NCBI RefSeq assembly: GCF_016446395.1
Contig: NZ_CP051168.1
Location: forward strand, 3,564,787-3,621,578
Direction: 5' to 3'
DNA from: [Phormidium] sp. ETS-05
GTDB taxonomy: Bacteria; Cyanobacteriota; Cyanobacteriia; Cyanobacteriales; Laspinemataceae
DNA length: 56,792 bases
The notes beneath the pieces were generated by a model. The model was not told the DNA's origin. It did no database searches and saw only the letters and a list, made by a program, of their open reading frames with translations. A program made the position numbers and the translations under genes. Below are positions 13,685 through 40,185 of the stretch, one piece after another (positions within the stretch are counted from its first letter, which is position 1; every line of letters starts with the position of its first letter).

Positions 13685-13775
13685 GCAGGGGACCCGGAGA
13701 CAAAGGACAAAGGACAAAGGACAAAGGACTAAGGACAAAGGACTAAGGACAAAGGACTAAGGACAAAGGACAAAT
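13685..13775. repeat. GGACAAA/GGACTAA heptamer tandem repeats
   Basis: gacaaaggacaaaggacaaaggactaaggacaaaggactaaggacaaaggactaaggacaaaggacaaata. Confidence 0.85.
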
Positions 13776-13870
13776 AACCAATTGCGTACTGGTAACAAAA
13801 TAATTGTTAGTTCTGGAATGGATTGGTGAGATAATTATCCCGAGTCTATCTGCTTTCGTTACCAGCAAAA

Positions 13871-16303
13871 ATGAATCAAACCCAACCGGAATGTCAAAAT
13901 TTGGCAGCATCTGTAGATACTTTGCTGCAACTGCTCCATCAAGAGCCATCTTTACGACTTTCCCAAGACACCACCACGGTGCAAGCATCCCTAAGAAAAG
14001 CGATATCGCCGAAATTTGAAATCGTCTTTGCGGGGGCCTTCAGCGCGGGTAAATCGATGCTCATAAATGCGCTGCTAGAAAGAGAATTGCTCTATAGCGC
14101 CGAAGGACACGCTACGGGGACAGAATGTCGCATAGAATATGCGGAACCGAATGCAGAACGGGTGGTGTTGACTTTTCTCAGTTTAGCAGAAATCCATACC
14201 CAAGCGGTGGCTTTATGTCAGTATTTAGGGGCGGAGTTAACCAACCAAGTCAGTCTGAACCAGCCAGATGTGATTGCTTTGTTGCGGAAAGCTGCGGAAA
14301 CTATTATTCAACTGGAAGGGGGGGAAACTAAGTCCGATCGGGCGAAGCAAGCGAAAGCCTTGATTTTTTTGCTAGATGGGTTTGAAGCCAATAAAGAATA
14401 CATCCATCCCAGCAAAAATAACACCTATTCAATGGAGCAATTGAAGTTTAACAACCTCAAAGAAGCCGCCAGCTATGCTCGTCGGGGACGCAACAGCGCC
14501 GTTTTAAAGCGAATTGAATATTATTGTTATCATTCTCTCCTAGAAGATGGTAACATTTTAATAGATTTACCCGGTATCGATGCCCCGGTGAAAAAAGATG
14601 CGGAACTCAGCTATGAAAAAATCGCCGATGAGGAAACCTCGGCGGTGGTATGTGTCCTCAAACCAGCATCAGAAGGGGAAATGACCACAGAAGAAACAGA
14701 GATGCTGGAAAAAATTCGGGATAATGCGGGGATTCGAGACCGAGTATTTTATGTGTTTAACCGCATCGATGATACTTGGTATAATACCCAGTTACGCCGC
14801 CGCTTGGATGATTTGATTAATACCCAATTTCGGGATAGCAGTCGCACCTACAAAACCAGCGCTCTGCTGGGATTTTATGGCAGTCAAATCAAGCAAACGA
14901 GCCCGGGCGATCGATTCGGACTAGATAGCGTATTTGCCGCCAGCGTCACCCCCGACAGCGACAGCGAAGAAGAAACCCCCCAATTCGTTTACGCCTTCAA
15001 CAACTATTGCAGCAACTCCCGCAAACTACCCAGCCAGTTTCGCATCTCCGTCAACAGCTATGAAACCCCGAATCAAAACTACCTCCGCATTCTCAGCGAG
15101 TGGGGAAACGACCTGATTAATCAGCTTATCCAAGATAGCGGGATAGAAGACTTTCGCCAAGGTATCACCCGCTACCTCACCCAAGAAAAGCGCCCCCAAC
15201 TATTCGCATCCCTCGCCAACGACTTACAGCCAATTTGCCTCACCTTACAACAAGGATACCTGCAGCAATACCGCGCCATTGACAGCCAACCTCGCGAAAT
15301 TCAAGGCATCAAATCCCGGCGGATAGAAATGCTCAACCAAGAATTACAACGCCTGGGTAGTGCTTTGAGTCAGCATATCAGTCAGGAAGTCAACCAAATC
15401 ATTACTAATGACTGCCGCACCTTTGAAGAGAGCTTCCGCAAGCTGAAAGTTAAAATGGTATCTAAGCTGGACGAACTCCTGAAGAGTTTCTCAGTGGAAG
15501 AAGCCTATAAACTGGCTACTGCCAGCCATCCGCGCAATTCCACCGCCCCGCTGCTGGCGATTTTAGTGGAAGCATTTTATTATCTTTCTAATCAGCTAGA
15601 GGATGTTTTAGCCGCCGCCGCTGCAGAAGTGATTACCACCACTTTTGCCTACTTAAACGAACAAATTCGCCGTCAAGACTATTACCGAGATTTATCTCGG
15701 TTAATTGGCAGTGATGCAGGGATAGAAACTGCTCTCCAGAAACTAGAAACGCAAATCCAGCTAGCCATTCGGGCGGCGGCGAGTGCCGAATGTGACCGAT
15801 TTGTGCGGGAAAGTCCCCGGTTTTATGATGAAGGGACGTTCTCGATTTACCAATTTCGCCAAGTGTTGCAACAAACCTCCCAGGGTTACGATGCGCTGAA
15901 TGTGATTCAGGCGGAAGATGGGATTCGCGAACTGCTGAAACTGGACTTTGAACCGAAGGTGGGTAAGACGATCGCCAGTACATTTCGCCAAACCATCAAC
16001 CAAATCATCAAAACTGAACTTTTGCCCTTGGCCAAAACCTTGGAAGATGGTATTATGCAGCAATACAACCGCGCTCGCGCCCATGTAGAGAAAACCTTAG
16101 AACAAGAAGCCCAAGAGCAGTTAACCGAGAACCAAAATCAACTGCAGGAACTGCGCCAAAAAATCGCCACTTATAATCAAGCGGTGACGGACATTAATCA
16201 ATGTTTATCGGCTCTGAATTTGGGGCGGTATCAGCTCCCTGGGGTAGATGTAGCTGGAGAAGAGAACCCCGCCACCCCCCCGTCCCCCGACGTAGAATTT
16301 TAG
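13871..16303 (+). CDS. Bacterial dynamin-like GTPase (810 aa)
   Basis: P-loop FAGAFSAGKSMLINALL near the N-terminus. A G4-like NRID motif (VFNRIDD) further on. Long helical C-terminal stalk/paddle region. No paired second dynamin gene is adjacent. Confidence 0.7.
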   Translation: MNQTQPECQNLAASVDTLLQLLHQEPSLRLSQDTTTVQASLRKAISPKFEIVFAGAFSAGKSMLINALLERELLYSAEGHATGTECRIEYAEPNAERVVLTFLSLAEIHTQAVALCQYLGAELTNQVSLNQPDVIALLRKAAETIIQLEGGETKSDRAKQAKALIFLLDGFEANKEYIHPSKNNTYSMEQLKFNNLKEAASYARRGRNSAVLKRIEYYCYHSLLEDGNILIDLPGIDAPVKKDAELSYEKIADEETSAVVCVLKPASEGEMTTEETEMLEKIRDNAGIRDRVFYVFNRIDDTWYNTQLRRRLDDLINTQFRDSSRTYKTSALLGFYGSQIKQTSPGDRFGLDSVFAASVTPDSDSEEETPQFVYAFNNYCSNSRKLPSQFRISVNSYETPNQNYLRILSEWGNDLINQLIQDSGIEDFRQGITRYLTQEKRPQLFASLANDLQPICLTLQQGYLQQYRAIDSQPREIQGIKSRRIEMLNQELQRLGSALSQHISQEVNQIITNDCRTFEESFRKLKVKMVSKLDELLKSFSVEEAYKLATASHPRNSTAPLLAILVEAFYYLSNQLEDVLAAAAAEVITTTFAYLNEQIRRQDYYRDLSRLIGSDAGIETALQKLETQIQLAIRAAASAECDRFVRESPRFYDEGTFSIYQFRQVLQQTSQGYDALNVIQAEDGIRELLKLDFEPKVGKTIASTFRQTINQIIKTELLPLAKTLEDGIMQQYNRARAHVEKTLEQEAQEQLTENQNQLQELRQKIATYNQAVTDINQCLSALNLGRYQLPGVDVAGEENPATPPSPDVEF

Positions 16304-16317
16304 GGGATTTAATTGGT

Positions 16318-16440
16318 AGGGGCACGGCATCATCAATATCTCGCTTTCACGAAAAATATTGATAACGCCGTGCCCCCCATATGATTGGGTTTTCCGGTTT
16401 TATCCGTGGGGGGCACGGCAGTATTAATATCTCGGTTTGA
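16318..16440. other. Three copies of a GGGGCACGGCrTyATyAATAT half-site: an inverted pair forming a roughly 20-bp hairpin, plus a third direct copy
   Basis: 16318-16338 and its inverted partner at 16352-16378 form a stem-loop right after the dynamin stop, so it may act as a terminator. A third copy at 16411-16433 abuts the cas2 fragment. Confidence 0.45.
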
Positions 16441-16446
16441 GGCGCT

Positions 16447-16643
16447 ATGTTAACGCGGGTGCAGTATAGTGTATTTGAGTGTCAGCTTACAGATACTCAA
16501 TATGAGGAACTCAGGTCCCGCTTGAGTAAGTTGATTAAGCCGGAGGACAATATCCGTTTTATTCCCTCTGCGCTTGTTGCTTTGGTAAGGTCGATCGGAT
16601 TGGCGGACCGTCGCCGGTGGATAGGACCATCTTCTTTGCTTAA
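16447..16643 (+). pseudogene. cas2: Truncated, frameshifted cas2 fragment (a duplicate of the 3' two-thirds of cas2 at 40287-40559)
   Basis: RVQYSVFECQLTDTQYEELRSRLSKLIKPEDNIRF aligns with Cas2 residues 28-62 of the intact copy. The N-terminus is missing. A 1-nt deletion relative to the intact copy (cgtttt att vs cgttttt act) shifts the frame. The original stop is preserved at 16641-16643. Confidence 0.8.
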
Positions 16644-16900
16644 CCCGATTTTGCGCGGAGGGGTAGGTGTTGGGAGAGGGCAATCAAAATTTTCGCCTGG
16701 AACCGTTGACGGGCAAGGTTTTGCACCCTCCCCGATAAAAAAACGAGCCGCGCAAATCCTGAAACCCTGATGAAACAAGCATTGCAGCGAAATTTTTTTT
16801 CAACCCCCTTGACAACCCAGGAGCTGAAATGGTATTTTTAGATCGATTAGCGCAAATGCACCTTGAAAACCGCATATTCCAAGGGTTCCAGGAGGCCGCC
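16644..16900 (+). promoter_or_regulatory. CRISPR leader (duplicate copy) with a putative promoter (-35 TTGACA at 16809-16814)
   Basis: About 93% identical to the leader at 40560-40816. Ends directly at the first repeat. TTGACA is followed about 18 nt later by an AT-rich -10 (GGTATTTTT). Confidence 0.7.
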
Positions 16901-17905
16901 CCCGAAATTTACCCGAATCCCTTTCAGGGATTGAAACTAACTGGTAATGGCAACAATCACAGCAACCAAAGTATCCCGAAATTTACCCGAATCCCTTTCA
17001 GGGATTGAAACGAGTACCGTTGAAAATTCTCATTTCCTTTTCCTTTTTCCCCGAAATTTACCCGAATCCCTTTCAGGGATTGAAACAGCAGCTTCCCCAG
17101 AAAGCTACTATCTTCATTGCGGCCCGAAATTTACCCGAATCCCTTTCAGGGATTGAAACCTCATCTCCCCCCCACACCAGGGCTATGCTTGCCCCTCCCA
17201 GTCCCCCGAAATTTACCCGAATCCCTTTCAGGGATTGAAACTTTAATTTTGCAATCAGCGGGACGTTAACGCGAACCTGCCCGAAATTTACCCGAATCCC
17301 TTTCAGGGATTGAAACATCATTGCTGCACAAATGTCAACGCTAATAACTTTTTCCCGAAATTTACCCGAATCCCTTTCAGGGATTGAAACTAACTATTGC
17401 CTTTACCGTAGTCTTCATGTTTGAGAACCCGAAATTTACCCGAATCCCTTTCAGGGATTGAAACTCGGCAGTCGCTAGGACTTGGCCGAATCGATCGGCG
17501 CCCGAAATTTACCCGAATCCCTTTCAGGGATTGAAACCAGTCATCGCGATCGCCGAAAGCTGCTTCGACAATGAACCCGAAATTTACCCGAATCCCTTTC
17601 AGGGATTGAAACCGAAAAACCAGATCAGATATTGTGTCGTTTTCTTCCCGAAATTTACCCGAATCCCTTTCAGGGATTGAAACGTGGATGTTGGCTCTGC
17701 CCAACCCTCCACATAAAAAAGCCCGAAATTTACCCGAATCCCTTTCAGGGATTGAAACGTGCTGTGGGTGGGGAGTGAGCTTGCCCTGATGTTCTATCCT
17801 CGAAATTTACCCGAATCCCTTTCAGGGATTGAAACGCCCTGCTTTGAAATCTGTAACATCATTCAAAACCGGAAATTTACCCGAATCCGTGAAAGGGATT
17901 GAAAT
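16901..17905 (+). CRISPR. CRISPR array 1: 14 repeats of 37 bp (CCCGAAATTTACCCGAATCCCTTTCAGGGATTGAAAC), 13 spacers of 33-45 bp
   Basis: Repeat starts at 16901, 16975, 17050, 17123, 17205, 17280, 17354, 17428, 17501, 17576, 17647, 17722, 17799 (one mismatch) and 17869 (degenerate terminal repeat ccggaaatttacccgaatccgtgaaagggattgaaat). The 3' end ATTGAAAC matches the canonical 8-nt crRNA handle. Leader is on the 5' side. Confidence 0.95.
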
Positions 17906-17932
17906 ATACAATGTATAGCACTAAAAATACTA

Positions 17933-17973
17933 AAAGCCGAAACCTCTACAGCATAAAGGTTTCGGCTTTTTTT
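17933..17973. terminator. Bidirectional intrinsic terminator between array 1 and tRNA-Phe
   Basis: aaagccgaaacc-tctacagcataa-ggtttcggcttt followed by T5 on the plus strand and A-rich on the other. Lies downstream of both the array (+) and the tRNA (-). Confidence 0.6.
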
Positions 17974-17980
17974 GGTGGAA

Positions 17981-18053
<73 letters not shown>

Positions 18054-18064
18054 TTAACTTTCTC

Positions 18065-18093
18065 ATGCTTAATTAGCATAACTCAATAATTCC
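18065..18093 (-). promoter_or_regulatory. Putative sigma70-type promoter of tRNA-Phe (-35 TTGACA, 17-nt spacer, -10 TATGCT)
   Basis: The minus-strand sequence TTGACAagctggaattattgagtTATGCT ends about 12 nt upstream of the tRNA 5' end. Confidence 0.45.
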
Positions 18094-18152
18094 AGCTTGT
18101 CAACCCCTATTTCAAAAAATTTTTTGGGGGGATGCTGAGCCTAGAACTACAC

Positions 18153-18204
<52 letters not shown>

Positions 18205-18277
18205 TTCATTTTTCATGCTTAACCGGCATAAAATTTTTTTGGGGACGTGGAACCCTGGTCCCACGCCCCTTTTACCT

Positions 18278-18730
18278 CTAGATAGGACGCAGGCGGGTGA
18301 CTTTGAGCTGGAACTCACCCACGCCGCCTTCCCCGAAAGCCCGCACTCGGACGATGTAATCGCCAGCGGTGGTAATACGGGAGAAAAGGAGAGAGTTGGT
18401 GGTGCCGTCCGGACCGTCGTCATTTTCGGCTACGGTGGTGCCGTCGGGACCGAGGAGAGAGACGATCGTATCGAAGCTCTCCGAGAGCAAGTCGATCGCC
18501 ACTTGGTCGCCCTCTTGCAGCTTCACCACATAATCACGCGCAAACCCGCCTTGCCCAGTGGGGATGTCTTTTTCCGTAAGGATATCGGTAATCTCCTTTT
18601 TCCCCTCCATCGAGACGGGGTTGTACATATTCTGGGCATTGACTTTCAGCGCCCCCATGCCCAAAGCCACCACAGCGGCGGGAATAATCAGGAGCTGACG
18701 GGATTTCATCGCAAGGGCAGTTAAATTCAT
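18278..18730 (-). CDS. Secreted protein with a bacterial pre-peptidase C-terminal (PPC)-like domain
   Basis: Signal peptide MNLTALAMKSRQLLIIPAAVVALGMGALKVNAQ. The beta-rich C-terminus (GDQVAIDLLSESFDTIVSLLGPDGTTVAENDDG ... GDYIVRVRAFG) resembles PPC domains. Confidence 0.5.
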   Translation of the reverse strand: MNLTALAMKSRQLLIIPAAVVALGMGALKVNAQNMYNPVSMEGKKEITDILTEKDIPTGQGGFARDYVVKLQEGDQVAIDLLSESFDTIVSLLGPDGTTVAENDDGPDGTTNSLLFSRITTAGDYIVRVRAFGEGGVGEFQLKVTRLRPI

Positions 18731-18902
18731 GGAAAAACTCTATATAGGAAACTCGAGTAACTCTAACAAAAAGATACTGAAACCAATGATGCTCGTCGGG
18801 GAGGTAGTGGGAGACGGGGAACCTGATGCCCGGAAATTATCCCGATCGCGGCGAAATTTAGCATAAAATTGTTACCGCTGGTATGGGAGTAGGAGTGTTA
18901 GG

Positions 18903-21488
18903 GTGAAACAGCAAGATAACCGAATGCTTCACAGACCGATCGGCTCGCCAAATCTGCTCCCCTTAGTGCTGCTGTGGTTGGTGGCGGCGGTAGCCGATCG
19001 CCTGTGGTTTGCCCTAGACAAATCCATCCCCGGTTGGGACCAAGCGGACTATCTCACCGGCGCCCTCAACTACTGGCGTGCCCTCCAAACCCCCCAATGG
19101 CTAGACCCCCAGTGGTGGCAAAACCTATGGTTGCTCTCCTCAAAAATCCCACCCGGCACCTACATCGCCACCGCCGCCATCCACAACATCTTTGGCACCG
19201 GAGCCCATGCCGCCACCCTCATCAACCTATGCTTTAGCGCCATTCTATTATATGCAGTGTTTGGACTCGGCACCAAGCTATTTAACCCTACCGTCGGCTG
19301 GTGGGCAGCCCTATTCTGCCTCATCTTCCCCGGCTTACTCCTCATCCGCTTAGACTTCCTACTAGACTATCCCCTCACCGCCACTTGCACCCTCGCCTTT
19401 TACCTCCTCACCCTGTGGCGCAGCAGCGAACCATCAACCCGTACCGCATGGCTGCTGGCGATCGGATTTGGTTTCACCCTCGGAGCCGCCCTCATGGTGA
19501 AACAAACCGCCATCCTATTCTTACTCATCCCCTGCCTCTGGGCAATCATCACCACCATTCGCCGCCGCCAAGTAGGGGCAAACCCCCCGTGGTTGCCCCT
19601 AGTCCAACTCGGAATATCATTCCTCATCGCCTTAGTCATAACCTACCCCTGGTATCGCACCAACTGGCTACTCATACTCACCGGCAGCAAACGCGCCACC
19701 GTCGATGCTGCCATAGCCGAAGGAGACCCAGCCCTCAACACCCTAGCCGCCTGGACCCACTACCTGCAACTGCTGCCCGAGCAAATCTCCTGGCCCTTAT
19801 TGCTCATCCCCTTACTCGCAGCCCTCCTCTATGGCAGGAGGCGACCCCAAGCCGAACTAGAGTCACTGCAATGGCTGGCAGGTTTCTGGCTCGGAGCCTA
19901 TCTGCTCTGCAGCCTGAATCTTAATAAAGATTTTCGCTATGTGCTGCCCTACCTACCCATCATGGCCGTATTTCTAGCCCAGTGTTTCACCCTTTGGCCC
20001 GGTTCTTGGGGGCGATCGTTGCGCTTTGGCACAGTAGCAGCAGCAACATTGATGCTCATACCTTCAGTTTGGCCCACAGATAGTTTGGCAGAACTAGCAG
20101 GAACCCATCGCGCCTATACTGGACCATCGTGGCCACACGCCAAAGTAGTGCAAGCAGTAGTAGAAGCAGACCCCTACCTGCAAGCCAACATAGGCGTACT
20201 ACCTTCCACCCTAGAAGTGAACCAGCACAATATTAACTACTATGGCGCCCAGGCAGATTTTCAGGTGTATGGGCGACAAGTGGGGACGCGGAGCAAAGAT
20301 GTGGCAAAAGATGCGCGGTCTATGTCCTGGTTTATCACCAAAACTGGTCCCCAAGGTTCCGTCCCCTCGGCGCAGCCAGAGATGGTGACTGCAGTGGAAA
20401 AGTCTAGCGATTTCCGCCTATACCGCAGTTGGCCATTGCCAGATAATACCACCCTCAATCTCTACCGCCGCCAGTTCAGAAATGTGCGGGTTGTGCCATT
20501 GCCAGAAACACCCAGCCGCAACCAAGTGCAGTTAGAGCGGGTGATAGTACCGCCGCGAGTCCCCCCGGGAATACCAGTTCCCGTAACATATCAGTGGTTG
20601 GGACCGGCTGAAGAGTTGCAACAGGGTTTAGTGTTGTTGGACTGGGTGCCCGTGGGGGATAGTAGTAGTAGTGGCTGGTGGAGCGATCGAGCCATTGGTA
20701 GAGGCATCTTGCACCTGCAAAACCAACTCTCCCAAGCCCAAGTCATAGAAACCACCGCCATACTCCCCCCCGCCGCTACCCCACCGGGCAAATACACCCT
20801 CACCGCCACCTACCTGCACCGCCACAGCAAAACCACATATCCCCTGAAAATACCTCCAGTCACCCTAGAAATTGACCCCAACGCCTTACCCGCAGTCGCC
20901 CCAGAACCAGAACTAATCACCCAACTGCAAACATTAGCCACCGCTCTCCCCAACGGACCCAATGCCCTCGGTCCCGTATTCGACGAAGTAGGACGCATCG
21001 CCCAATATGACCCCACCCAAGACTACCTACGTCAAGCCGAATTAACCTTAGCCCACCGACTGCAACAACAGCCAAACAATCTATCCATTGCCTATAATTT
21101 GAGTTTGGCGAGAGTATTGCGGCGAGACGCCTCTGGGGCCGCCGCCGCATTACAGCGCGTCACCGAGCTAGACCCAAAAAACCCCTATGCCCATGCCTAT
21201 CTTGCCTTTGTTAATCTTTACGATTGGCGACCTTTTGCCGCCGCCGCTCCCCTCAAAACCGCCCTGGAACTAGCACCCCAGAGCCAAGAAATCCAAATTC
21301 TCGCCGCCGTGGGCGCCCTGATGCGGGGAAATCCCTTTCAAACCTGGCATTATCTCCAAGATTTTATCCCATCTGGGGTTAAATTAGTAGTTAAGTTTAT
21401 CCTGGGCGCATCGTTACTGTTGGTGATTGTGCTAATGACTATAATTATCACCAAATTTATGAAAAATAGCAGCAGTATCAAAATCTAA
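18903..21488 (+). CDS. Integral membrane glycosyltransferase-like protein (GT39/ArnT-PMT-like N-terminal region with about 10 transmembrane helices) with a C-terminal TPR-like region and a final transmembrane anchor
   Basis: N-terminus DRLWFALDKSIPGWDQADYLTGALNYWRAL followed by many hydrophobic helices. C-terminal TPR-like helices (AYNLSLARVL ... NPYAHAYLAFVNLY). GTG start. The palindromic element at 19577-19608 is embedded in frame. Confidence 0.5.
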   Translation: MKQQDNRMLHRPIGSPNLLPLVLLWLVAAVADRLWFALDKSIPGWDQADYLTGALNYWRALQTPQWLDPQWWQNLWLLSSKIPPGTYIATAAIHNIFGTGAHAATLINLCFSAILLYAVFGLGTKLFNPTVGWWAALFCLIFPGLLLIRLDFLLDYPLTATCTLAFYLLTLWRSSEPSTRTAWLLAIGFGFTLGAALMVKQTAILFLLIPCLWAIITTIRRRQVGANPPWLPLVQLGISFLIALVITYPWYRTNWLLILTGSKRATVDAAIAEGDPALNTLAAWTHYLQLLPEQISWPLLLIPLLAALLYGRRRPQAELESLQWLAGFWLGAYLLCSLNLNKDFRYVLPYLPIMAVFLAQCFTLWPGSWGRSLRFGTVAAATLMLIPSVWPTDSLAELAGTHRAYTGPSWPHAKVVQAVVEADPYLQANIGVLPSTLEVNQHNINYYGAQADFQVYGRQVGTRSKDVAKDARSMSWFITKTGPQGSVPSAQPEMVTAVEKSSDFRLYRSWPLPDNTTLNLYRRQFRNVRVVPLPETPSRNQVQLERVIVPPRVPPGIPVPVTYQWLGPAEELQQGLVLLDWVPVGDSSSSGWWSDRAIGRGILHLQNQLSQAQVIETTAILPPAATPPGKYTLTATYLHRHSKTTYPLKIPPVTLEIDPNALPAVAPEPELITQLQTLATALPNGPNALGPVFDEVGRIAQYDPTQDYLRQAELTLAHRLQQQPNNLSIAYNLSLARVLRRDASGAAAALQRVTELDPKNPYAHAYLAFVNLYDWRPFAAAAPLKTALELAPQSQEIQILAAVGALMRGNPFQTWHYLQDFIPSGVKLVVKFILGASLLLVIVLMTIIITKFMKNSSSIKI

Positions 21489-21760
21489 ATGTCACTTGTC
21501 ATTTGTCCTTTGTCACTTGTCATTTGTCCCTTGTCCTTTGTCACTTGTCATTTGTCCCTTGTCACTTGTCCCTTGTTCGCTTGTATCAATAAACAAAGGA
21601 CGAAGGACAAAGGACAAAGCCTGCCCTGAGCCTGTCGAAGGGGACAAATGACCAATGACCAATGACCAATGACAAATGACAAATGACCAATGACAAAGGA
21701 CTAATGACAAATGACCAAGGACAAAGGACAAATGACCAATGACCAATGACAAAGGAACAA
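21488..21760. repeat. Dyad-symmetric heptamer repeat block (TTTGTCA-type arm, central CTTGTTCGCTTGTATCAATAAACAAA core, GGACAAA/TGACCAA-type arm)
   Basis: The left arm is the reverse complement of the right arm. The same central core recurs at 47869-47905. Confidence 0.85.
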
Positions 21761-21765
21761 GTTTT

Positions 21766-22050
21766 ATGTCTTTACCTCCCGCAGTTGCCGAAGTTCTCCT
21801 AAAACTGGCCAAAGATACTGCTTTAGACCTGAAAACCAAACTAGCAGAAACTGCCCCTAACGATAAAATCAAGGCAGACCCGCGTTATCTCCCAGCAATT
21901 GCTGCCTACGCCGGGGGGGAAACCGACGGCAAGGAGCTAAGCCAAACCATGATGAAATTGCTCTGGGAGTGGCAGGCACCCAAAATCGCCCTTAAGTGGG
22001 CAGAAATAGCAGAAATATGGGATAAAAAAATAATTGGTTTGGGCTATTGA
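21766..22050 (+). CDS. Small hypothetical protein (about 94 aa)
   Basis: An ATG at 21766 with AAGGA 11 nt upstream. The track's upstream extension lies inside the repeat block. The stop overlaps the next gene's start (TTGA). Confidence 0.45.
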   Translation: MSLPPAVAEVLLKLAKDTALDLKTKLAETAPNDKIKADPRYLPAIAAYAGGETDGKELSQTMMKLLWEWQAPKIALKWAEIAEIWDKKIIGLGY

Positions 22051-23648
22051 GCTGGCAGGCAACCGAACAGCTTTGGCAACAGGCGCAGCAGCATCATCAC
22101 TTACTGATTTTAACCGCTCCTCTCCGAGTTAGTAAAAGCTGTCCGCGCACTTTTCGGGAAGACCTGCCTATAGAGCTGACGGCGGAATTGCGGAGATTTT
22201 TACACCAACAGTATCCCCTAGGGAGTCCATCATCGCCGGTGGATTTTTGCGCTGACTATTTCACGAAACCAATTTCACCAGCGGATGTGGGTAAATTGCG
22301 AGAATTTTGGCAACCGATACCGGCAGTAATATTATCTCTAAGTATCACGGATTATAAAGCATATTTCCAAGTGGGGTTTTGGGGCGTGGATGGGAACATG
22401 GCCTCAATATATGACTTGCCCGGTTGGAATTGGTTGGAGGCCAAACAGGAATTAGAACAAACTGGGTTTAAGCGGGATGAAGCTCTGCGGAAAATTAGGG
22501 AAATTTTGGTGGAAATGAGCAAATTGCTGGGAGCGTTTGTGACGGATTGGCATTACCTACAGCTCAATCCAGCTTATCAGCCTCAGTTATACCGTTTGGT
22601 GACACAGCTTGGTCATTGGGGGCAGTCTTTTGCTGATGTTTTGCGCTCTTATCAGGCGGAAATCAGACCAATTCGCCACCGGGCAAAAACCGAGATAGAT
22701 ATTGGGAAAGTCACATCGTTTAAATGCGTGCAAACCTTGACGGGACATGATAGCTGGGTGGAGTCATTGGCCATTAGCCCTGATGGCAGAACTTTAGTCA
22801 GCGGTGGCTATGATAATACGATTAAAGTTTGGGGATTAGGGGGGGATACGTCCAGATCAGGATATGGGAAATTAATCCGCACGCTTTTGGGGCATGGGAG
22901 TACGGTTTATGGGCTTTCTTTCACGCCAAATGGTCAGCTTTTAGTGAGCGGTAGTGATGATAATACGATTAAAATCTGGGATTGGCAGAGTGGGGAATTA
23001 ATCAGAACTCTCACGGGACGTTTTGCTAAAGTGCAAGCGGTGGCAATTAGCCCCGATGGCCAAACTTTGGTGAGTGGCAATGATGACCGGACGGTGAAAA
23101 TTTGGCATTTGGCCACGGGAGAGTTGCGGGAGACGTTAACGGGACATGGGACGAAGGTGGTAACGGTGGCTATTAGTCCTGATGGGGAAAAAATTGTCAG
23201 TGGTGGGGAAGACCGGACGGTGAAAATCTGGGATTTGAAGGGTGGGCAGTTAATCCGCAGTCTCACGGGTCCAGTTGGGGCGGTGTATTCCGTGGCGATC
23301 GCCCCAGACGGGCAAAAAATCGTCAGTGGTGGAGCGGACCATAGTATCCATGTTTGGGATTTAGAAACTGGGGAGTTGATTCGCATCCTCAACGGTCGTG
23401 CGGGAGCGGTTTATTGCGTCGCCATTAGTCCTGATGGTAACACCCTCGCCAGTTGTGACTATAGCACGGATTCTCATAATTACACCGATGCCGCGATCGA
23501 ACTCTGGCACCTCCCCACGGGAAAGGCTCTGCACACCCTCAAAGGTCACGATAGCCGGATTTTCTCCGTCGTCTTCAGTCCTGATGGCAATACTATTGTC
23601 AGTGCTAGTGCCGATCGAACTATAAAAATCTGGCGCTCTGATTCCTAG
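22047..23648 (+). CDS. WD40-repeat protein with an uncharacterised N-terminal domain of about 240 aa
   Basis: Seven canonical WD40 blades in the C-terminal 300 aa (GH...VxSGGxDxTIKIWD repeated). N-terminal region without recognisable motifs. Start uncertain (TTG at 22047 or an internal ATG). Confidence 0.7.
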   Translation: MSWQATEQLWQQAQQHHHLLILTAPLRVSKSCPRTFREDLPIELTAELRRFLHQQYPLGSPSSPVDFCADYFTKPISPADVGKLREFWQPIPAVILSLSITDYKAYFQVGFWGVDGNMASIYDLPGWNWLEAKQELEQTGFKRDEALRKIREILVEMSKLLGAFVTDWHYLQLNPAYQPQLYRLVTQLGHWGQSFADVLRSYQAEIRPIRHRAKTEIDIGKVTSFKCVQTLTGHDSWVESLAISPDGRTLVSGGYDNTIKVWGLGGDTSRSGYGKLIRTLLGHGSTVYGLSFTPNGQLLVSGSDDNTIKIWDWQSGELIRTLTGRFAKVQAVAISPDGQTLVSGNDDRTVKIWHLATGELRETLTGHGTKVVTVAISPDGEKIVSGGEDRTVKIWDLKGGQLIRSLTGPVGAVYSVAIAPDGQKIVSGGADHSIHVWDLETGELIRILNGRAGAVYCVAISPDGNTLASCDYSTDSHNYTDAAIELWHLPTGKALHTLKGHDSRIFSVVFSPDGNTIVSASADRTIKIWRSDS

Positions 23649-23708
23649 AGAACCAGCCACAAAGGCAGAATTACGGGTAAAATAATTGTTGCAACAACTA
23701 GGTAAATT

Positions 23709-24656
23709 ATGCGCGAACTTTATCCCCCCATTCAACCATATAACCAAGGCAACTTAAAAGTTTCCGATATTCACACCATCTATTTTGAAGAATGCGGCAA
23801 CCCCCAAGGCAAACCGGCAGTATTTTTACACGGCGGTCCTGGCGGTGGCAGTATTGCCGCTTATCGCCAGTTTTTCCACCCCAATAAATGGCGGGTAGTA
23901 TTGTTTGACCAGCGGGGATGCGGTCGCAGCACCCCCCACGCCGAATTAGAAGAAAATACTACCTGGAATTTGGTTAAAGATATTGAAACAATTCGCCAGC
24001 ATTTGGGAATTGATAGTTGGGTAGTAGTCGGGGGCAGTTGGGGCAGCACATTGGCTTTAGCCTATAGCCAAACCCATCCAGAGCGCTGTCAAGGATTGAT
24101 TCTGCGCGGCATATTTATGGTGCGCTCAAAGGAAATCCGTTGGTTTTACCAAGAAGGCACCAGTTATATTTTTCCTGATGCTTGGGAAGAGTATCTCAAA
24201 CCCATTCCCGAAGCTGAAAGACACGATATGGTAGCCGCTTATTATCGCCGCTTGACCAGTGCCGATCGAGCCATCCGCCTAGAAGCAGCTCGCGCCTGGT
24301 CTATTTGGGAAGGCAGCACCAGCAAATTAATCCCCGACAACCAAAGCATCCAGAGATTTGGTCAAGATTATTTTGCCGAAGCCTTTGCCCGCATCGAATG
24401 CCATTATTTCATCAACAACTGTTTCCTAGAACAACCAGACCAACTGCTGCAAAATGTCCCCCGTATCAGTCACCTCCCCGGGGTCATTATCCACGGACGC
24501 TATGACGTAGTTTGTCCCCTCACTTCCGCTTGGGAACTCCACCGCGCATGGCCGAAATCAGAATTACACATTATCCCTGATGCCGGTCATTCTATGTTTG
24601 AACCCGGTATCCTCAGCGCCATTATTGAAGCTACGGATAAATTTGCGCAAATGTAA
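23709..24656 (+). CDS. pip: Proline iminopeptidase (prolyl aminopeptidase, S33 family)
   Basis: 315 aa alpha/beta hydrolase. HGGPGGGS oxyanion motif. GGSWGSTLALAY nucleophile elbow. C-terminal His in IIPDAGHS. Confidence 0.88.
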   Translation: MRELYPPIQPYNQGNLKVSDIHTIYFEECGNPQGKPAVFLHGGPGGGSIAAYRQFFHPNKWRVVLFDQRGCGRSTPHAELEENTTWNLVKDIETIRQHLGIDSWVVVGGSWGSTLALAYSQTHPERCQGLILRGIFMVRSKEIRWFYQEGTSYIFPDAWEEYLKPIPEAERHDMVAAYYRRLTSADRAIRLEAARAWSIWEGSTSKLIPDNQSIQRFGQDYFAEAFARIECHYFINNCFLEQPDQLLQNVPRISHLPGVIIHGRYDVVCPLTSAWELHRAWPKSELHIIPDAGHSMFEPGILSAIIEATDKFAQM

Positions 24657-27459: not shown

Positions 27460-28332
27460 TTATGGCTGGGTGGTGATGCCGTAAAGCTGGCAGATTTGCA
27501 CTAGCTGCTGTTGGAGCCGATCGCGCAGGTTCTGCGGGGATATTACCAGACATTGCTGGGCTTGGGGCATCACTTCCCGGATAAACCAGTAGGTGTTAGA
27601 GATTTTCTTGACTACTCGCAAGACTTGCCCGGAGTCTGGCAACCATTCGGTGAACTCATCTTCTGATTTTATTCGCGCCGCATAGGCAAAAGCTAGGCGA
27701 TCGAATAAGTGCATTTCCACCCGCAGCGAATCCATATGGGACCGCCAAGGTCGCTGGATGGGGGCGACGCCTGCGGTGACGATGCGATCGAGCCGCAAAC
27801 TCCAGTTATGGATTAATTCGGGCAAATCCAGATTGCCTTCGGTTTCTTCGCACCAACAATCGAGATATTGTCCTCCTTCGTGGAGGTTAATTTGGGCATG
27901 GCGGACCGTGAAGGTCCAGGGGCGACCGGTGGCGTCTTGATAGAAGAGGCGAAACGGCTGCTGGCGGCGGATGTAGCCATCAATTTCCTCCCGCCAGGGG
28001 GGCGGGGGATTTCCCACGAAGCGTTCCATTTCTTGGCGCATGGGCCATGAGGTTTCGTGGCGTTCTAGGAGCAGCTTGGCTACTACCTGGGCCTCGGCGA
28101 GCTTCCCCAGGTCCGTGAGTGCGCGGACACATTGGGCGAGAACGTCGAGGCGACTGGTGGGCCAGTCGTTATTGGGGGCGAGGGATAGCTGCTTCCGGGC
28201 AATGGCTTGCACCAGTTTGGAAATGTTGGGTCGATCGCCCCAAGTCATCCCCAATTCCAGGGCAATCGCTTCTAGCTGCTCCTTGTCTGACTGTGATAGA
28301 GATAGCGTTACTGTCTGACCCTTGCGACTCAT
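27460..28332 (-). CDS. WYL-domain transcriptional regulator, divergent from cas3' (CRISPR-associated regulator)
   Basis: N-terminal DNA-binding-like region. The C-terminus has the WYL-domain signature ...GQYLDCWCEETEGNLDLPELIHNWSLRLDRIV (the RLDRI motif). Its position mirrors WYL regulators found upstream of type I-D operons. Confidence 0.6.
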   Translation of the reverse strand: MSRKGQTVTLSLSQSDKEQLEAIALELGMTWGDRPNISKLVQAIARKQLSLAPNNDWPTSRLDVLAQCVRALTDLGKLAEAQVVAKLLLERHETSWPMRQEMERFVGNPPPPWREEIDGYIRRQQPFRLFYQDATGRPWTFTVRHAQINLHEGGQYLDCWCEETEGNLDLPELIHNWSLRLDRIVTAGVAPIQRPWRSHMDSLRVEMHLFDRLAFAYAARIKSEDEFTEWLPDSGQVLRVVKKISNTYWFIREVMPQAQQCLVISPQNLRDRLQQQLVQICQLYGITTQP

Positions 28333-28454: not shown

Positions 28455-30635
28455 ATGGGAGATTACTACTGCACCCTCAAGCCAGTTTATTCCTGCCCCG
28501 CCACTAAGTTGCCCGCAGGAGTCAAACTGCCTCCTGGCTGGACTTTAGCTTGGCACCAGGCAGCCACCTTAGAGGCAGTGCGCGACCCGAATATCGATGT
28601 AATTATCAATATAGCCCTGACGGGGGATGGTAAAAGTCTATCCGCTTATCTGGACAGTATGCAAGGACACAGCTACGCGCTGGGACTTTATCCCACCAAC
28701 GAGCTGGCGCGGGACCAGGAGGGGCAGGTGAGAAGATATATCGAGGAATTCCAGCCACCTGGAGAACCGCGAGTGTCCCGGTTGAGCGGCCCGGAATTAG
28801 AAATTTATGCGGAAAATGAGGGATTAAGGAAAGCAGCAGCATTGGATTCTAGGTCTTCAAATTCAGAAATTTTATTGACCAATCCCGATATTTTCCACTA
28901 CCTCCATCGTGGGGCTTACTTAACTCTTAATGATACCCCAGATAAGCTGTGGAACCGAATTGATAAGGATTTTAACCTGTTCATTTTTGATGAATTTCAC
29001 ACGGCGAGTGCGCCGCAAATTGCCGGTATAATCAACACCATGCTGCTGATTCGCTGTACTAATCGCCAGAAAAAATTTCTGCTGATGTCAGCGACGCCAA
29101 ATGACCGATTAATCGAGCGATTGCAAGCGGCGGGGTTTCGGTGTCGGATAATTAATCCCCTACAGGAGAGAAAATATCAGTTTCCTGATTCTGCGGGGCG
29201 GGAAAATGAGTTAAAATTGCAGAATTGGCGGCAAGTATCGCGGCAAATTTCTCTCGAGTTTATTTCTTTAGAACCGACGGCAAAGGCTACGGAAACTTGG
29301 GTGAAAGAAAATGGCAATCTGATTTTGCGTCATTTTCAGGAATATCCGGGGAGCAAAGGGGCAATTATCCTTAATTCTATTGCGGCGGTGAAGCGGTTAG
29401 TGCCGAGGTTGCGAGATTTGCTGTCACCCCACGGTTTGGTAGTGGGGGAGAATACGGGTTTATCGGGGAAGGGGGAGAAGGAGCGATCGCTCGCCGCTGA
29501 CCTCGTAATTGGCACCAGCACTATTGACGTGGGGGTAGATTTCAAAATTAATTTTCTCATATTTGAATCCGCCGATGGGGGTAACTTTATTCAGCGGTTG
29601 GGAAGGTTGGGACGACATGACGGCTACGAACGCAATGGGGAGAAAATTGCCTTTACCAATTTCACCGCTTATGCTTTAGTCCCTAATTTTTTATTGGAGC
29701 GGCTGTTTTTGGGGAATCATCCGCCCCTGCAGTCTGGGGGAATGTACGATCGGCCCTACTTCCACCAGCAAATCAGCGACAAATATCGCCAAATCAACGA
29801 CTTTGAGGGATATTACTCCCGCTGGGGGTTGGTGCAATCATGCTTGCTGGATTCCCAGCTCAAGCATATCACAATTAAAAAGGGCTACGCCAGCAGTCGG
29901 GAGGAATTTAGCACTACTTGCCAGCGGGTATTTAAGAAAAGTTTGGGTAAAGCATATGGACAGATAAAACAATGGAATCAGGAGTGGCAAGAGCTATCCG
30001 GTCAAAAAAGCACTTCTCCGATTGTTGAAGATGCTGCCAGTTTCCGGGGAACCAGTCCGCTCCAGTGTGGTTTATACGATTTGACTGAGGCAGCGGCGAC
30101 AGACCGGTTTAAAACCTATGATTTATCGGGAATTTTGAGCAATCTGGAAATTGAACCGATAACTAAAGTGGAGTTTATGCGCCTGCTAGAGGAGACGGAA
30201 AAAACCACGGGACAACCTATTGCTAAAGGTCGATTTAATGGCTGTCTCGCTTTTATGAAATTGCGCGCTTATCGAGAGGAGCGGTTCAACTGGCAATTTA
30301 CTTATGCAGGTGATTTGCGGCCATTAGCTAGTGCTTGGAGGGTGCAAGTGTTGACGGGGATTCAGGTTTGGCAACCGGAGAATTACTGGATTAATGAAAT
30401 TAATCAGCTCTTGAAAAAGCAAGGGTTAGTGAGCTACGTGGTCCGCCATCCGGTGGGGGAGGTACGATCGCGCCTCCGCCTCCCCATGCACTTTCAGATT
30501 TACCCCATGAGCGATCGAGCCAGTTTGCACGACCGCACGGCCCCCTACTCCGTAGCCTTCGGTCAGTCGGCCCTATTACTGGACACCCTGACCCACTGGC
30601 TCAAAAGCATAGGGGGCGATATATGGATTTCCTAG
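28455..30635 (+). CDS. cas3': Cas3' superfamily-2 helicase (type I-D; no HD domain)
   Basis: Walker A ALTGDGKS. DExH box LFIFDEFH. Helicase C-terminal motifs. No HD motif, which sits instead in the downstream large subunit, as expected for type I-D. Confidence 0.75.
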   Translation: MGDYYCTLKPVYSCPATKLPAGVKLPPGWTLAWHQAATLEAVRDPNIDVIINIALTGDGKSLSAYLDSMQGHSYALGLYPTNELARDQEGQVRRYIEEFQPPGEPRVSRLSGPELEIYAENEGLRKAAALDSRSSNSEILLTNPDIFHYLHRGAYLTLNDTPDKLWNRIDKDFNLFIFDEFHTASAPQIAGIINTMLLIRCTNRQKKFLLMSATPNDRLIERLQAAGFRCRIINPLQERKYQFPDSAGRENELKLQNWRQVSRQISLEFISLEPTAKATETWVKENGNLILRHFQEYPGSKGAIILNSIAAVKRLVPRLRDLLSPHGLVVGENTGLSGKGEKERSLAADLVIGTSTIDVGVDFKINFLIFESADGGNFIQRLGRLGRHDGYERNGEKIAFTNFTAYALVPNFLLERLFLGNHPPLQSGGMYDRPYFHQQISDKYRQINDFEGYYSRWGLVQSCLLDSQLKHITIKKGYASSREEFSTTCQRVFKKSLGKAYGQIKQWNQEWQELSGQKSTSPIVEDAASFRGTSPLQCGLYDLTEAAATDRFKTYDLSGILSNLEIEPITKVEFMRLLEETEKTTGQPIAKGRFNGCLAFMKLRAYREERFNWQFTYAGDLRPLASAWRVQVLTGIQVWQPENYWINEINQLLKKQGLVSYVVRHPVGEVRSRLRLPMHFQIYPMSDRASLHDRTAPYSVAFGQSALLLDTLTHWLKSIGGDIWIS

Positions 30636-30637
30636 AA

Positions 30638-30748
30638 AGTCAATCCCTGAAAGGGATTCAACACACTGGTTATCAGTGGGAGGGCATTAGCCCGCAAGAG
30701 CGATGTACGAAATTTCAATCCCTGAAAGGGGTTCGAGTAATTTTTGCC
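30638..30748 (-). repeat. Degenerate two-repeat CRISPR mini-array in antisense orientation inside the cas operon
   Basis: 30712-30747 tttcaatccctgaaaggggttcgagtaatttttg matches the reverse complement of the array repeat at about 30 of 36 positions. 30638-30664 keeps the core caatccctgaaagggattc (19 of 19). The 74-bp spacing equals one repeat-spacer period. Confidence 0.6.
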
Positions 30749-30789
30749 CTCCTCCTCAATCATACAGCAAAAAGTCCCAAAAATTTACT

Positions 30790-30826
30790 TGTCTTCATAC
30801 ATTGTTCTTTAGTGCTGTGTATAATG
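30790..30826 (+). promoter_or_regulatory. Putative extended -10 promoter (TGTGTATAAT) upstream of the small ORF and the toxin-antitoxin pair
   Basis: gtgctgtgtataatgg at 30813-30826. Lies inside the cas operon, downstream of cas3'. Confidence 0.4.
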
Positions 30827-30957
30827 GAGGTGGTGGCGTCAGCCCGCAAGAACAAAGGCCGAAATTCGTTGGAACTGGCTAAGTGCCCTTCTGACGCTTT
30901 CATACCTTACTAAGCCAGGAGCGACCACCATAACCATCCCGGTGGAGGTTCCCATCA

Positions 30958-31146
30958 ATGATTGCATATCAGCAACTAGAACTTTTTGATACTCGCCCTT
31001 ACACATCGGAGCAGCCTATTGCGATCGATAAGGAGGAAGAGCCAGTTACAGTGACTCCCCAAATGGAGCATAAACAGCTAGAACTCAATTTGTTTCCACA
31101 AAAGTCTCATAATACTCCCCTGGAGTGGTTGAGCTTAGCTGCCTAA
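30958..31146 (+). CDS. Small hypothetical protein (62 aa) with a strong SD (GGAGG, 9 nt spacer)
   Basis: MIAYQQLELFDTRPY... No known motif. Well-placed ribosome-binding site. Confidence 0.4.
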   Translation: MIAYQQLELFDTRPYTSEQPIAIDKEEEPVTVTPQMEHKQLELNLFPQKSHNTPLEWLSLAA

Positions 31147-31246
31147 TTTTCCAAGGGGGCTACGACTAAATTAAAATCAAAAGCCCCCTGGCTTCTCAAC
31201 ACTGTATATATGCAGTTTTTCATCTTGGTGAGTTCCAGAGTTTTCC

Positions 31247-31702
31247 ATGAATACAGGCGCAGAAAAATCAACAGATATCACTAATCTTGCCGTCCAACTG
31301 CCAGAAAAATTTCAACACCTAAAAATGCTGGTGCTGTTTGGTTCCAGAGCCAGAGGTGATTTTCGTCCAAACAGTGATTGGGACTTTGCCGCTGTCTATG
31401 ATGAAGCGATTTATCAAAATTTGACAGAAAATCCGTTTGCCGTGTTTGAAATTTCGGGAATTATCAGTAATTTGTTAAATATTCCCGAATCTAAAATAGA
31501 TGTGATAGACTTAGGTAGATGTTCCGCGCTTTTGGCTCACTACGTCGCTCGTGACGGTAAAGTTTTGTATGAACAAGAACCGGGGCAGTTTGAGCAATTC
31601 CGCCGTCAGGCCCTCAAGAGTCACGCTGAAATGAAAGCAACTTACCAAAGCCTGCGCGCCAAACTTGATGAGAGGTTGCAAAATTGGGGTTATGACGATT
31701 GA
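31247..31702 (+). CDS. Nucleotidyltransferase-domain protein (MntA-like antitoxin of a HEPN/MNT pair)
   Basis: LVLFGSRARGDFRPNSDWDFAAVYD is a minimal NTase fold (GS...D.D). The 3' end overlaps the next ORF by 11 nt. Confidence 0.6.
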   Translation: MNTGAEKSTDITNLAVQLPEKFQHLKMLVLFGSRARGDFRPNSDWDFAAVYDEAIYQNLTENPFAVFEISGIISNLLNIPESKIDVIDLGRCSALLAHYVARDGKVLYEQEPGQFEQFRRQALKSHAEMKATYQSLRAKLDERLQNWGYDD

Positions 31703-32132
31703 AAAATATATAGTTATAGCAAAAATAGATTTGATGGGCAAGTATTTGGAACGATTGCAGCGGTTTGAATCTGTGACCTTAGAACAATACCTCAATGATG
31801 GGGATATGCAGTTGGTCGTAGAAAGACTATTACAGCTAATCATTCAAATGGCGATCGACCTGAATCGGTACTTTTTGAAAGAATTAGGGATTGACCAACC
31901 AGAAACCAACGCTGAAGCATTCCACGCCGTCAGCCAATGTGGCATTATTCCCGATAATTTAGCCAAAAACATCGCTGGTTCGGTCAGCTTGCAAAATCGT
32001 TTGGTTCACGGCTATGATACAATCGATAGTGTTATCGTGCATGGTAGCATCAAGAAAGTATTGCAGTATTTTCCCATGTATCAAAAACAAGTCGGCAATT
32101 ATTTGGATTCTTTGGAGGACAAAAATGGCTAG
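31692..32132 (+). CDS. HepT-like HEPN-domain protein (DUF86-type toxin)
   Basis: The C-terminal NRLVHGYD fits the R-x2-H-x-Y part of the HEPN Rx4-6H motif. Size and tight coupling to the upstream NTase are typical of HepT/MntA modules. Confidence 0.5.
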   Translation: MTIEKYIVIAKIDLMGKYLERLQRFESVTLEQYLNDGDMQLVVERLLQLIIQMAIDLNRYFLKELGIDQPETNAEAFHAVSQCGIIPDNLAKNIAGSVSLQNRLVHGYDTIDSVIVHGSIKKVLQYFPMYQKQVGNYLDSLEDKNG

Positions 32133-35631: not shown

Positions 35632-35637
35632 ATTGTA

Positions 35638-35800: not shown

Positions 35801-35818
35801 CCTTAAAGGAGACTAATC

Positions 35819-40179: not shown

Positions 40180-40185
40180 GGGTTG

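Follow-up and report, generated by a model that had tools for sequence, protein, structure and literature searches.

How did a CRISPR array lying away from the cas genes come to be preceded by a leader and a fragment of cas2? The question is raised by a stretch of 56,792 nt of the [Phormidium] sp. ETS-05 genome (contig NZ_CP051168.1, positions 3,564,787 to 3,621,578; hereafter, the window), which contains two CRISPR arrays, array 1 and array 2, with a common 37-nt repeat, CCCGAAATTTACCCGAATCCCTTTCAGGGATTGAAAC, on the same strand. The type I-D cas operon upstream of array 2 is the only cas set in the window, in agreement with an earlier note on this sequence, which had assigned one cas operon to both arrays. 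From the comparisons presented here, we consider it fairly probable that array 1 belongs to the resident type I-D system as a cas-distal array, located at an old site beside tRNA-Phe, and that its leader was replaced or restored by a segment of cas2 and leader from the cas-adjacent locus.

Relatives were found by exact and near-exact protein look-ups together with a scan for the repeat. They comprise the Logan contig L001 (SRR11282941), from a strain 98% identical to the window downstream of array 2; the metagenome-assembled genome (MAG) GCA_054682715.1 (L002), the closest relative found, with a 99% identical dynamin-like protein and a 4-fold-site divergence of 8.7%; M33_DOE_052 (M33), with a 4-fold-site divergence of 27% from the window and contigs including L013, L015/L029, and L023/L027; and GCA_013573125.1 (L030).

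The sequence preceding array 1 is a copy of the cas2 3' end and leader

A global alignment of 16456-16900 (445 nt) with 40368-40816 gave 449 columns, of which 420 were identical (93.5%), with 25 mismatches and 4 gap columns. When 16200-16900 was searched against the window with BLAST, the sole other match was 40367-40815 (93.8% over 449 nt, E = 0.0, 679 bits). The earlier note had put the identity of the ~450 bp before array 1 to the cas2 3' end plus leader at ~90-95%, which these values bear out, and had proposed a check for identity extending beyond the repeat; both searches return a 445-nt copy upstream of it. The cas2 part is identical at 181 of 192 columns (94.3%) and the leader part at 239 of 257 (93.0%). 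An assembly artefact was rejected, because 29 of the 449 columns differ between the copies.

The left end of the copy is exact, falling between 16455 and 16456, where GTTAAC is directly followed by GCGGGTGCAG. Alignments within the window revealed no homology of the sequence upstream of 16456 to the array-2 locus. The preceding 'gaggcgctatgttaac' (to 16455), which includes an ATG at 16447, is flank and not cas2, and is also present in L002.

The cas2 part starts at codon 28 (R28), so that 27 codons are missing and not the first 28, as had been stated. The frameshift reported for it, a 1-nt deletion after 16556, and its status as a pseudogene both hold, but a second, 3-nt in-frame deletion is also present, after 16541. 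Once the frame is corrected, the C-terminal end still reads exactly as in Cas2. All seven substitutions and both indels are unique to the array-1 copy, cas2 itself being identical in the window and L001. Three of the substitutions are non-synonymous and four synonymous (p ~0.07 in a hand-calculated binomial test, not significant), and selection on the pseudogene is therefore unsupported. The Pfam Cas2 profile (PF09827) covers the pseudogene only at profile positions 26-65 of 74.

A 107-aa open reading frame (ORF) runs through the pseudogene. It is 100% identical to P0241, named 'CRISPR-associated endonuclease Cas2' of [Phormidium] sp. ETS-05 by NCBI (6.29-Mb contig), and the frameshifted form was found in no other genome in a collection of 5.8 billion proteins. 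TIGR01573 matches the ORF at 29.6 bits, compared to a cut-off of 24.5, over residues 2-40 only, and this partial match probably explains the name. A full-length Cas2 domain in an intact frame, N-terminal strand with its conserved Asp included, is not what the ORF encodes: it is missing codons 1-27 and is frameshifted after 16556. Its upstream neighbor is not cas1, but a dynamin-like GTPase gene and palindromic repeats. These results indicate that the public name is misleading: the annotation calls Cas2 a cut, frameshifted fragment fused to leader sequence. The ORF has its own ATG, with GAGG 4 nt upstream, and could, as a less likely extra, be translated to a Cas2 fragment that interferes with adaptation. 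Exact-protein look-ups of the ORF (window copy and P0241) and of the window dynamin-like protein found no contigs, and that of the window PPC found a single 916-nt contig, which ends short of the array.

The copied leader groups with cas-linked leaders

In the leader of array 1 (TTGCGCGGAGGGGTAGG...CCAGGAG), the conserved leader proper starts at TTGCGCGG (~16653). Leader distances were 0.072 between the leaders of arrays 1 and 2 (a1 and a2, respectively) and likewise between a2 and that of L001, 0.116 between a1 and the cas-linked M33 leader, and 0.181 between a1 and the L013 leader. In neighbor-joining trees with 1000 bootstraps, {a1, a2, L001} was recovered at 97%, {a1, a2} at 70%, the two distal M33 leaders at 99%, and {a1, L013} at 0%. 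In addition, a1 and a2 have at least four derived states in common relative to L001 and all M33 leaders. These results place the array-1 leader among the cas-linked leaders and apart from its positional orthologue. Taken with the cas2 fragment joined to it, they show that the present leader of the array beside tRNA-Phe has been copied, later than the M33 split, from a cas-adjacent locus in the ETS-05 lineage. Array 1 thus combines high leader similarity with homology that runs on upstream, as in an isolated array formed by leader duplication.

The promoter-like site (Table 1) is kept in all leaders of this clade. Compared to the leaders of arrays with 37-63 repeats, both this site and the final 100 nt of the array-1 leader lie inside the range of variation. 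Unique changes number 13 in a1 versus 4 in a2; those specific to array 1 are concentrated where all leaders vary, sparing the promoter/junction part as well as the first 80 nt. The leader, its TTGACA promoter, and the repeat had been described as intact, and the sequences of the promoter-like site, the leader-repeat junction, and the repeats were found so. An exact leader pattern had 0 matches in a genome contig collection that does not include ETS-05 and its nearest relatives, and a degenerate pattern matched, among metagenome contigs, only M33-type contigs from one sample.

A separate observation concerns L001, in which, over window 40287-40816, cas2 is identical at 273 of 273 nt and the adjoining leader differs at 18 of 257 positions (7%). 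So abrupt a change suggests that recombination breakpoints between L001 and the window lie at the cas2/leader boundary.

The array site is older than the copied leader

In the M33 contig L013 (DVDU01000298), a leader and 56 repeats are followed by tRNA-Phe, PPC, and PMT, in the order and orientation of the window, and the terminal repeat (cGGAAATTT...) and trailer (..ttgtatagc) resemble those of the window. The L013 leader is 82% identical to the window leaders and has no cas2 piece: its homology to the cas-linked leader begins at TTGCGCGG, ~10 nt past the cas2 stop, and the upstream flank is non-cas. The leader boundary is the same in a second cas-distal M33 array (L023/L027, 43 repeats), which also has no cas2 sequence; the cas-linked M33 array (L015/L029) is immediately preceded by cas1-cas2. 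In all, M33 combines a single I-D cas1-cas2 locus with three or more arrays of 37-56 repeats that bear a leader, indicating that several leader-bearing arrays served by one I-D operon are normal in this clade.

In L002, the flank ...GGGGGGCACGGCAGTATTAATATCTGGGTTTGAGGCGCTATGTTAAC (ending ...GAGGCGCTATGTTAAC) is followed by AACTGCGGGGT, an array of 3 repeats and 2 spacers, a single tRNA-Phe, PPC, and PMT. Neither the pseudogene nor a leader is present at this site, where 11 nt separate flank and array. The first and last L002 repeats are degenerate, with the loop flipped (TTTC to TGAA), and the degenerate terminal repeat and trailer of array 1 are common to L002. The orthologous arrays in L013 and L002 indicate that the array site predates the copy and that the duplicated part is a replacement leader. 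The earlier view, in which the duplication created array 1, does not agree with a leader-bearing array of 56 repeats and an array of 3 repeats at the same site in relatives; the site was not empty beforehand, and only the leader is secondary.

At its left end, the copy abuts two palindromic repeat units, as the earlier note had found in placing the breakpoint next to a half-site element. Unit 1 (~16318-16381) is complete, and unit 2 (~16408-16455) ends after GTTAAC, without its right arm, the copy beginning at the next base. Half-sites of the form GGGCACGGC..T.AATAT occur at 16320, 16356 (minus strand), and 16411 (3 observed versus 0.14 expected), and the region folds with -57.6 kcal/mol (z = -3.4). 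The element occupies the orthologous place in L002 (12985-13128), which has a further copy at 19920-19985, and L030 (2655-3168) contains tandem intact units reading ...ATGTTAA(C/T)GACGCCGTGCCCC. To judge from these copies, the element is a dispersed repeat family present in relatives, and not a scar of the copying event. Aligned to the absent right arm with a single gap, the 11 nt of L002 plus CCC (AACTGCGGGGTCCC, 14 nt) agree with it in 9 of 13 positions. The L002 state suggests itself as the older one, from which that of the window would be derived, although this is not decisive.

As for the palindromic family itself, it is dispersed and sometimes tandem, with two unit types, and one L002 copy lies just beyond the end of synteny with the window. 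The family may be an element resembling miniature inverted-repeat transposable elements that is tied to rearrangements.

The copy can be dated from the pseudogene, in which the unique substitutions amount to 7/188, or 3.7% (Poisson range ~1.5-7.7%). The per-lineage neutral (4-fold) divergence is ~4.6% to L002 and 17% to M33. On this clock, the copying event is far younger than the M33 split and about as old as the L002 split. An old duplication that has since been maintained, as previously suggested, finds little support, because 3.7% is about the per-lineage distance to the nearest MAG and the frameshifted ORF is in no other genome of the protein collection. A gain in the ETS-05 lineage after the L002 split seems probable and a later loss in L002 unlikely; the gain is favored by the junction, by the degenerate first repeat of L002, and by the absence of the ORF from every other genome of that collection.

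Array 1 has the features of a cas-distal array

Array 1 consists of constant-length direct repeats with unique spacers of similar length (mean 37.5, versus 37.0 in array 2). Twelve of its 14 repeats are perfect, that is, identical to the array-2 repeat; the 13th has 1 mismatch, and the terminal one, degenerate and with its loop flipped, has 6. Rfam CRISPR-DR5 matches the repeats on the plus strand. The repeat is that of the cas-adjacent array, the genome has a complete cognate cas set, and a leader with the promoter-like site (a consensus match only) precedes repeat 1, with the degenerate repeat at the far end.

No spacer is common among the 13 of array 1, the 62 of array 2, and the 2 of L002, and the spacer content of array 1 is independent of the cas-adjacent array. 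Consequently, array 1 either gained spacers after the copy or turned over independently; both histories would fit an active array better than an inert one. The intact repeats, the leader, and the unique spacers likewise point to activity. The 75 spacers of the two arrays had no match among GenBank phages, nor had three array-1 spacers in IMG/VR, and hence neither a protospacer adjacent motif nor target evidence was obtained. An Rfam scan of 16200-18300 returned only tRNA and CRISPR-DR5, with no match in the leader or the palindromic element. The splitting of one array by an insertion was rejected, because array 1 carries its own copy of the leader.

In array 2 (42625-43112, 42701-42886, 45146-45258), two pairs of spacers stem from protospacers that overlap or adjoin, with overlaps of 20 nt and 14 nt, and a further spacer is present as a tandem duplicate, consistent with repeated or primed acquisition from one target and with internal repeat-spacer duplication.

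Proposed origin of array 1 and its alternatives

If the leader of an older array was replaced or restored, the source would be a 445-nt segment (cas2 codons 28-90 plus the 257-nt leader), with at least the first repeat, from a cas-adjacent I-D locus of the same lineage. The left join would be non-homologous, onto the palindromic unit ending after GTTAAC, and the right join most likely homologous recombination within identical repeats. A possible route starts with a break close to repeat 1 and invasion of array 2, followed by copying toward the leader and cas2 and by end joining, with the cas2 piece as a passenger that decayed after copying. The new leader would supply a promoter and a leader-repeat junction of the type heading arrays of 37-63 repeats. 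Array 1 would then probably be transcribed and cut by Cas6, with a predicted 8-nt handle, ATTGAAAC, on its CRISPR RNAs; these would be taken up by the Cas10d/Csc2/Csc1 complex, and the array would be lengthened by Cas1-Cas2-Cas4, whose genes lie 22 kb away.

Several observations weigh against this proposal. At the left junction, GCGGG is common to cas2 and the L002-type sequence, but 'AACT' is missing, and there is no clean microhomology. The pseudogene has C at 16483, as in the M33 cas2 and not the window cas2, and its differences are unevenly spread, 5 of them falling within its initial 52 nt and 2 within the following 136, which may reflect later conversion or a donor from another strain. 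Leaving out the CCC that the repeat also has, the match of L002 to the right arm drops to 6/10. Arrays can be mis-assembled in a MAG such as L002, and the clock estimate overlaps the L002 split, all of which makes the polarity relative to L002 tentative. The view covers 57 kb of the genome, and other leader copies could be the true donor. Finally, the activity suggested for array 1 is deduced from its sequence.

The overlap of the clock, 3.7% (~1.5-7.7%) compared to 4.6% per lineage, would also allow the leader to have been replaced before ETS-05 and L002 split, L002 having later deleted the pseudogene, the leader, and most of the array. 'GCGGGGT' in L002 could be the first bases of the pseudogene (GCGGGT), and the GTTAAC boundary is common to L002. 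Such a deletion, however, must begin at the exact base of the older junction and leaves the extra 'AACT' and the extra G unexplained, whereas the palindrome right arm is a better fit to the 11 nt. In addition, the first L002 repeat is degenerate, as expected for an array long without a leader, and the frameshifted ORF is in no other genome of the protein collection. We regard this order of events as unlikely. Rather improbable in our view is that array 1 is an inert relic, a neutral leader copy with no acquisition and no part in defense. Activity is our deduction, the array has 13 spacers only versus 62, and its leader is overall not better conserved than the pseudogene (93.0% versus 94.3%). 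Conversely, the twelve perfect repeats are identical to those of array 2, the a1 changes avoid the first 80 nt and the promoter/junction and cluster in a generally variable stretch, all spacers are unique, and the positional orthologue in M33 has grown to 56 repeats.

Recombination of a cas2-leader-array segment from another strain into the resident array, by horizontal transfer, would account for the M33-type base at 16483, for the 13 unique leader changes in a1 versus 4 in a2, and for a cas2 identical to that of L001 next to leaders that differ by 7%, which points to recombination around leaders; a preprint on P. aeruginosa argues for lateral transfer of isolated CR3 arrays (PMC13142298). 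The at least four derived leader states that unite a1 and a2 against L001 and all M33 leaders, the bootstrap of 0.70 for {a1, a2}, and the lack of mobile-element genes nearby make such a transfer distinctly improbable. The version of the earlier note, in which leader and truncated cas2 were duplicated into an array-free site and seeded an array that then grew, is right that the copy is real, and a minimal seed of leader plus repeat would fit the absence of spacers common to array 2. We hold it very improbable, given that arrays with the same repeat, orientation, trailer, and tRNA-Phe/PPC/PMT neighbors exist in M33 (56 repeats, own leader) and L002 (3 repeats), with the degenerate terminal repeat and trailer common to L002. 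Of equally slight, if anything slighter, probability is that the segment is what remains of a second complete I-D locus between the dynamin-like gene and tRNA-Phe, whose cas genes were deleted up to a point inside cas2. The truncation point does lie inside cas2, and cas pseudogenes beside arrays have been recognized as marking locus decay (Haft et al. 2005, PMC1282333). No further cas remnant, however, turned up in the window, in L002, or ahead of the L013 leader, where 35 nt are available; the stop of the dynamin-like gene directly abuts the palindromic units; the orthologous M33 leader has a non-cas flank; L002 has the same flank without any cas2 sequence; and a1 nests at 7% distance among the cas-linked leaders of the lineage, not as a deep paralogue.

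Replacement or restoration of the leader on an older array is thus the reading we keep. A more specific form of it, which we put forward tentatively and with somewhat less than even confidence, is that the array of the common ETS-05/L002 ancestor was leaderless and had decayed to few repeats, and was revived in ETS-05 by the leader transplant. In such a rescue, palindromic repeats and a rearrangement would have come to abut the first repeat, costing the array its leader, and a tract copied from the cas-adjacent locus, from repeats through the leader to cas2, would have revived it. Should rescue of this kind be frequent, recurrent copying from the cas-linked leader would maintain functional leaders at cas-distal arrays, and cas2 fragments would be a searchable footprint of such copying.

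The type I-D cas locus and gene neighborhood

The features are listed in Table 1. Cas3', Cas10d/Csc3, Csc2, Csc1, Cas6, Cas4, Cas1, and Cas2 all match above NCBIfam or Pfam cut-offs. Between the arrays lie housekeeping genes, as previously described, here tRNA-Phe, PPC, PMT, WD40, and a pip-like hydrolase. A transposon or mobile element as carrier was dismissed, none of the ORFs searched with Pfam or NCBIfam profiles being a transposase or integrase. The CRISPR-repeat-targeting Tn7-like elements of cyanobacteria do not fit (bioRxiv 10.1101/2024.10.13.618069).

Table 1. Coordinates of features in the window
Feature	Position	Strand	Remarks
Palindromic repeat units, two (GGGGCACGGC...GCCGTGCCCC)	16311-16455	+	from half-site count, folding, relatives
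107-aa ORF	16447-16770	+	flank ATG, cas2 pseudogene, then out-of-frame into leader
cas2 pseudogene	16456-16643	+	cas2 codons 28-90; 2 deletions, 7 substitutions
Leader of array 1	16644-16900	+	257 nt; copy of cas-adjacent leader, 239/257 identical
Promoter-like site	16809-16838	+	TTGACA - 18 nt - TATTTT with upstream TG; consensus match 10/12
CRISPR array 1	16901-17905	+	14 repeats of 37 nt, 13 unique spacers (33-45 nt)
Hairpin	17932-17970	.	T/A runs on both sides, bidirectional terminator-like; between array 1 and tRNA-Phe
tRNA-Phe(GAA)	17981-18053	-	71.4 bits; right-hand array neighbor in all three lineages
Type I-D cas operon	28455-40179	+	NCBIfam/Pfam matches above cut-offs
cas3'	28455-30635	+	
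MNT/HepT toxin-antitoxin pair	31247-32132		within I-D operon span
cas10d (Cas10d/Csc3)	32014-35631	+	
csc2 (Cas7)	35819-36832	+	
csc1 (Cas5)	36832-37536	+	
cas6	37615-38484	+	
cas4	38435-39070	+	
cas1	39175-40179	+	
cas2, intact, 90 aa	40287-40559	+	source-type sequence for pseudogene; nucleotide-identical in L001
Cas-adjacent leader of array 2	40560-40816	+	
CRISPR array 2	40817-45442	+	63 repeats, 62 spacers

The block order is swapped relative to L002 (window 13736-24652 and 45444-55433). In L002, UvrD...CysS-AI2E-HK precede the dynamin-like gene...pip, and in the window the dynamin-like gene...pip are followed by cas and array 2 and then by UvrD...HK. A KGK gene follows the dynamin-like gene in L002, M33, and L008, and is absent in the window and L030. 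A local tandem duplication of ~150 nt (17968-18290) includes tRNA-Phe; the second copy (18138-18204) scores 35.9 bits versus 71.4 and looks degenerate, and L002 and M33 have a single tRNA-Phe.

Within the operon, the toxin-antitoxin pair between cas3' and cas10d is of type VII, with HepT as the RNase toxin (NCBIfam NF047751) and MNT as the nucleotidyltransferase (Pfam Polbeta/NTP_transf_2). Right after the cas3' stop, two degenerate repeat-like units, aagtcaatccctgaaagggattcaac and aatttcaatccctgaaaggggttcgagtaatttttg, lie reversed on the minus strand (30637-30748), spaced 75 nt apart, which is one CRISPR period; they could be what is left of a minus-strand mini-array, or else a regulatory element resembling a crRNA and located between cas3' and the other genes of the operon. 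Upstream of cas3', a divergent gene (27460-28332, minus strand) encodes a 290-aa WCX-domain protein, probably a WYL-type regulator by its domain and a candidate regulator of the I-D operon.

Beyond array 2, a UvrD-like helicase gene (45444-47850, minus strand) is in two ORFs (268 and 445 aa) and is a single gene of at least 766 aa in relatives; a distance of 2 nt separates its stop codon from the final array-2 repeat. Throughout the window, heptanucleotides (TGTCCTT/GACAAAG and variants) are repeated in tandem beside many genes, among other places just upstream of cas2, and often form inverted pairs; examples are at 2517-2814, 13699-13774, 21490-21756, 40183-40267, and 47809-47972.

Comparison with known systems

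The cas2 fragment serves as a fossil: it tells that copying ran from the cas-adjacent to the cas-distal array and not the reverse, and it also provides a neutral clock. One site in three genomes, with an inherited leader, with no leader and a decayed array, and with a re-supplied leader, documents leader turnover, which has been less attended to than spacer turnover.

In P. aeruginosa, the isolated type I-F array CR3 has 98% identity with the cas-adjacent CR2 over 900 bp upstream, including the leader; its spacers differ from those of CR2, and interference and adaptation were shown experimentally (PMC13142298). Array 1 is like CR3 in its near-identical leader, in homology beyond the leader (445 nt at 93.5% here), in a (near-)identical repeat, in entirely different spacers, and in one cas operon for all arrays. 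Unlike CR3, array 1 belongs to type I-D in a filamentous cyanobacterium, with its arrays 23 kb apart, and its upstream part is a recognizable cas2 fragment, which gives the copying direction. The copy in ETS-05 landed on an older array, the original leader type of which survives in a relative. The function of CR3 is established by experiment, whereas that of array 1 is predicted.

Propagation of leader and repeat clusters within genomes has been noted since the first archaeal genomes, as in the 'long repeat' loci of M. jannaschii (PMC1282333). As in those loci and in the multi-array M33 genome, several arrays here have one leader family and one repeat. In contrast to the distal M33 leaders, which start ~10 nt after the cas2 stop, the array-1 copy reaches 188 nt into cas2, and the placement of its leader in the cas-linked clade indicates an event separate from and later than that of the distal M33 leaders.

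Degraded CRISPR-cas loci can contain cas1/cas2 pseudogenes, those of cas2 being a mark of a locus in decay (Haft et al. 2005, PMC1282333). Array 1 resembles such loci in having a truncated, frameshifted cas2 directly before a leader and array. Unlike loci that decayed in place, it has an intact cas2 and the same leader 24 kb away, and the orthologous sites of relatives are without cas genes. Remnants of cas2 beside arrays after cas gene loss were reportedly described in E. coli by Diez-Villasenor et al. in 2010.

Recombination between CRISPR arrays is said to have been treated by Kupczok et al. in Genome Biol Evol in 2015. The right junction proposed here would likewise use identical repeats as homology, whereas the tract would differ in leaving the array through the leader into cas2 and ending in a non-homologous join. 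Overall, duplicated leaders and cas-distal arrays are already well known, and array 1 leaves the understanding of CRISPR unchanged; what it adds is a cas2 fragment that settles which way the copying went, together with evidence, by comparison with relatives, of a leader replaced or restored on an older array.

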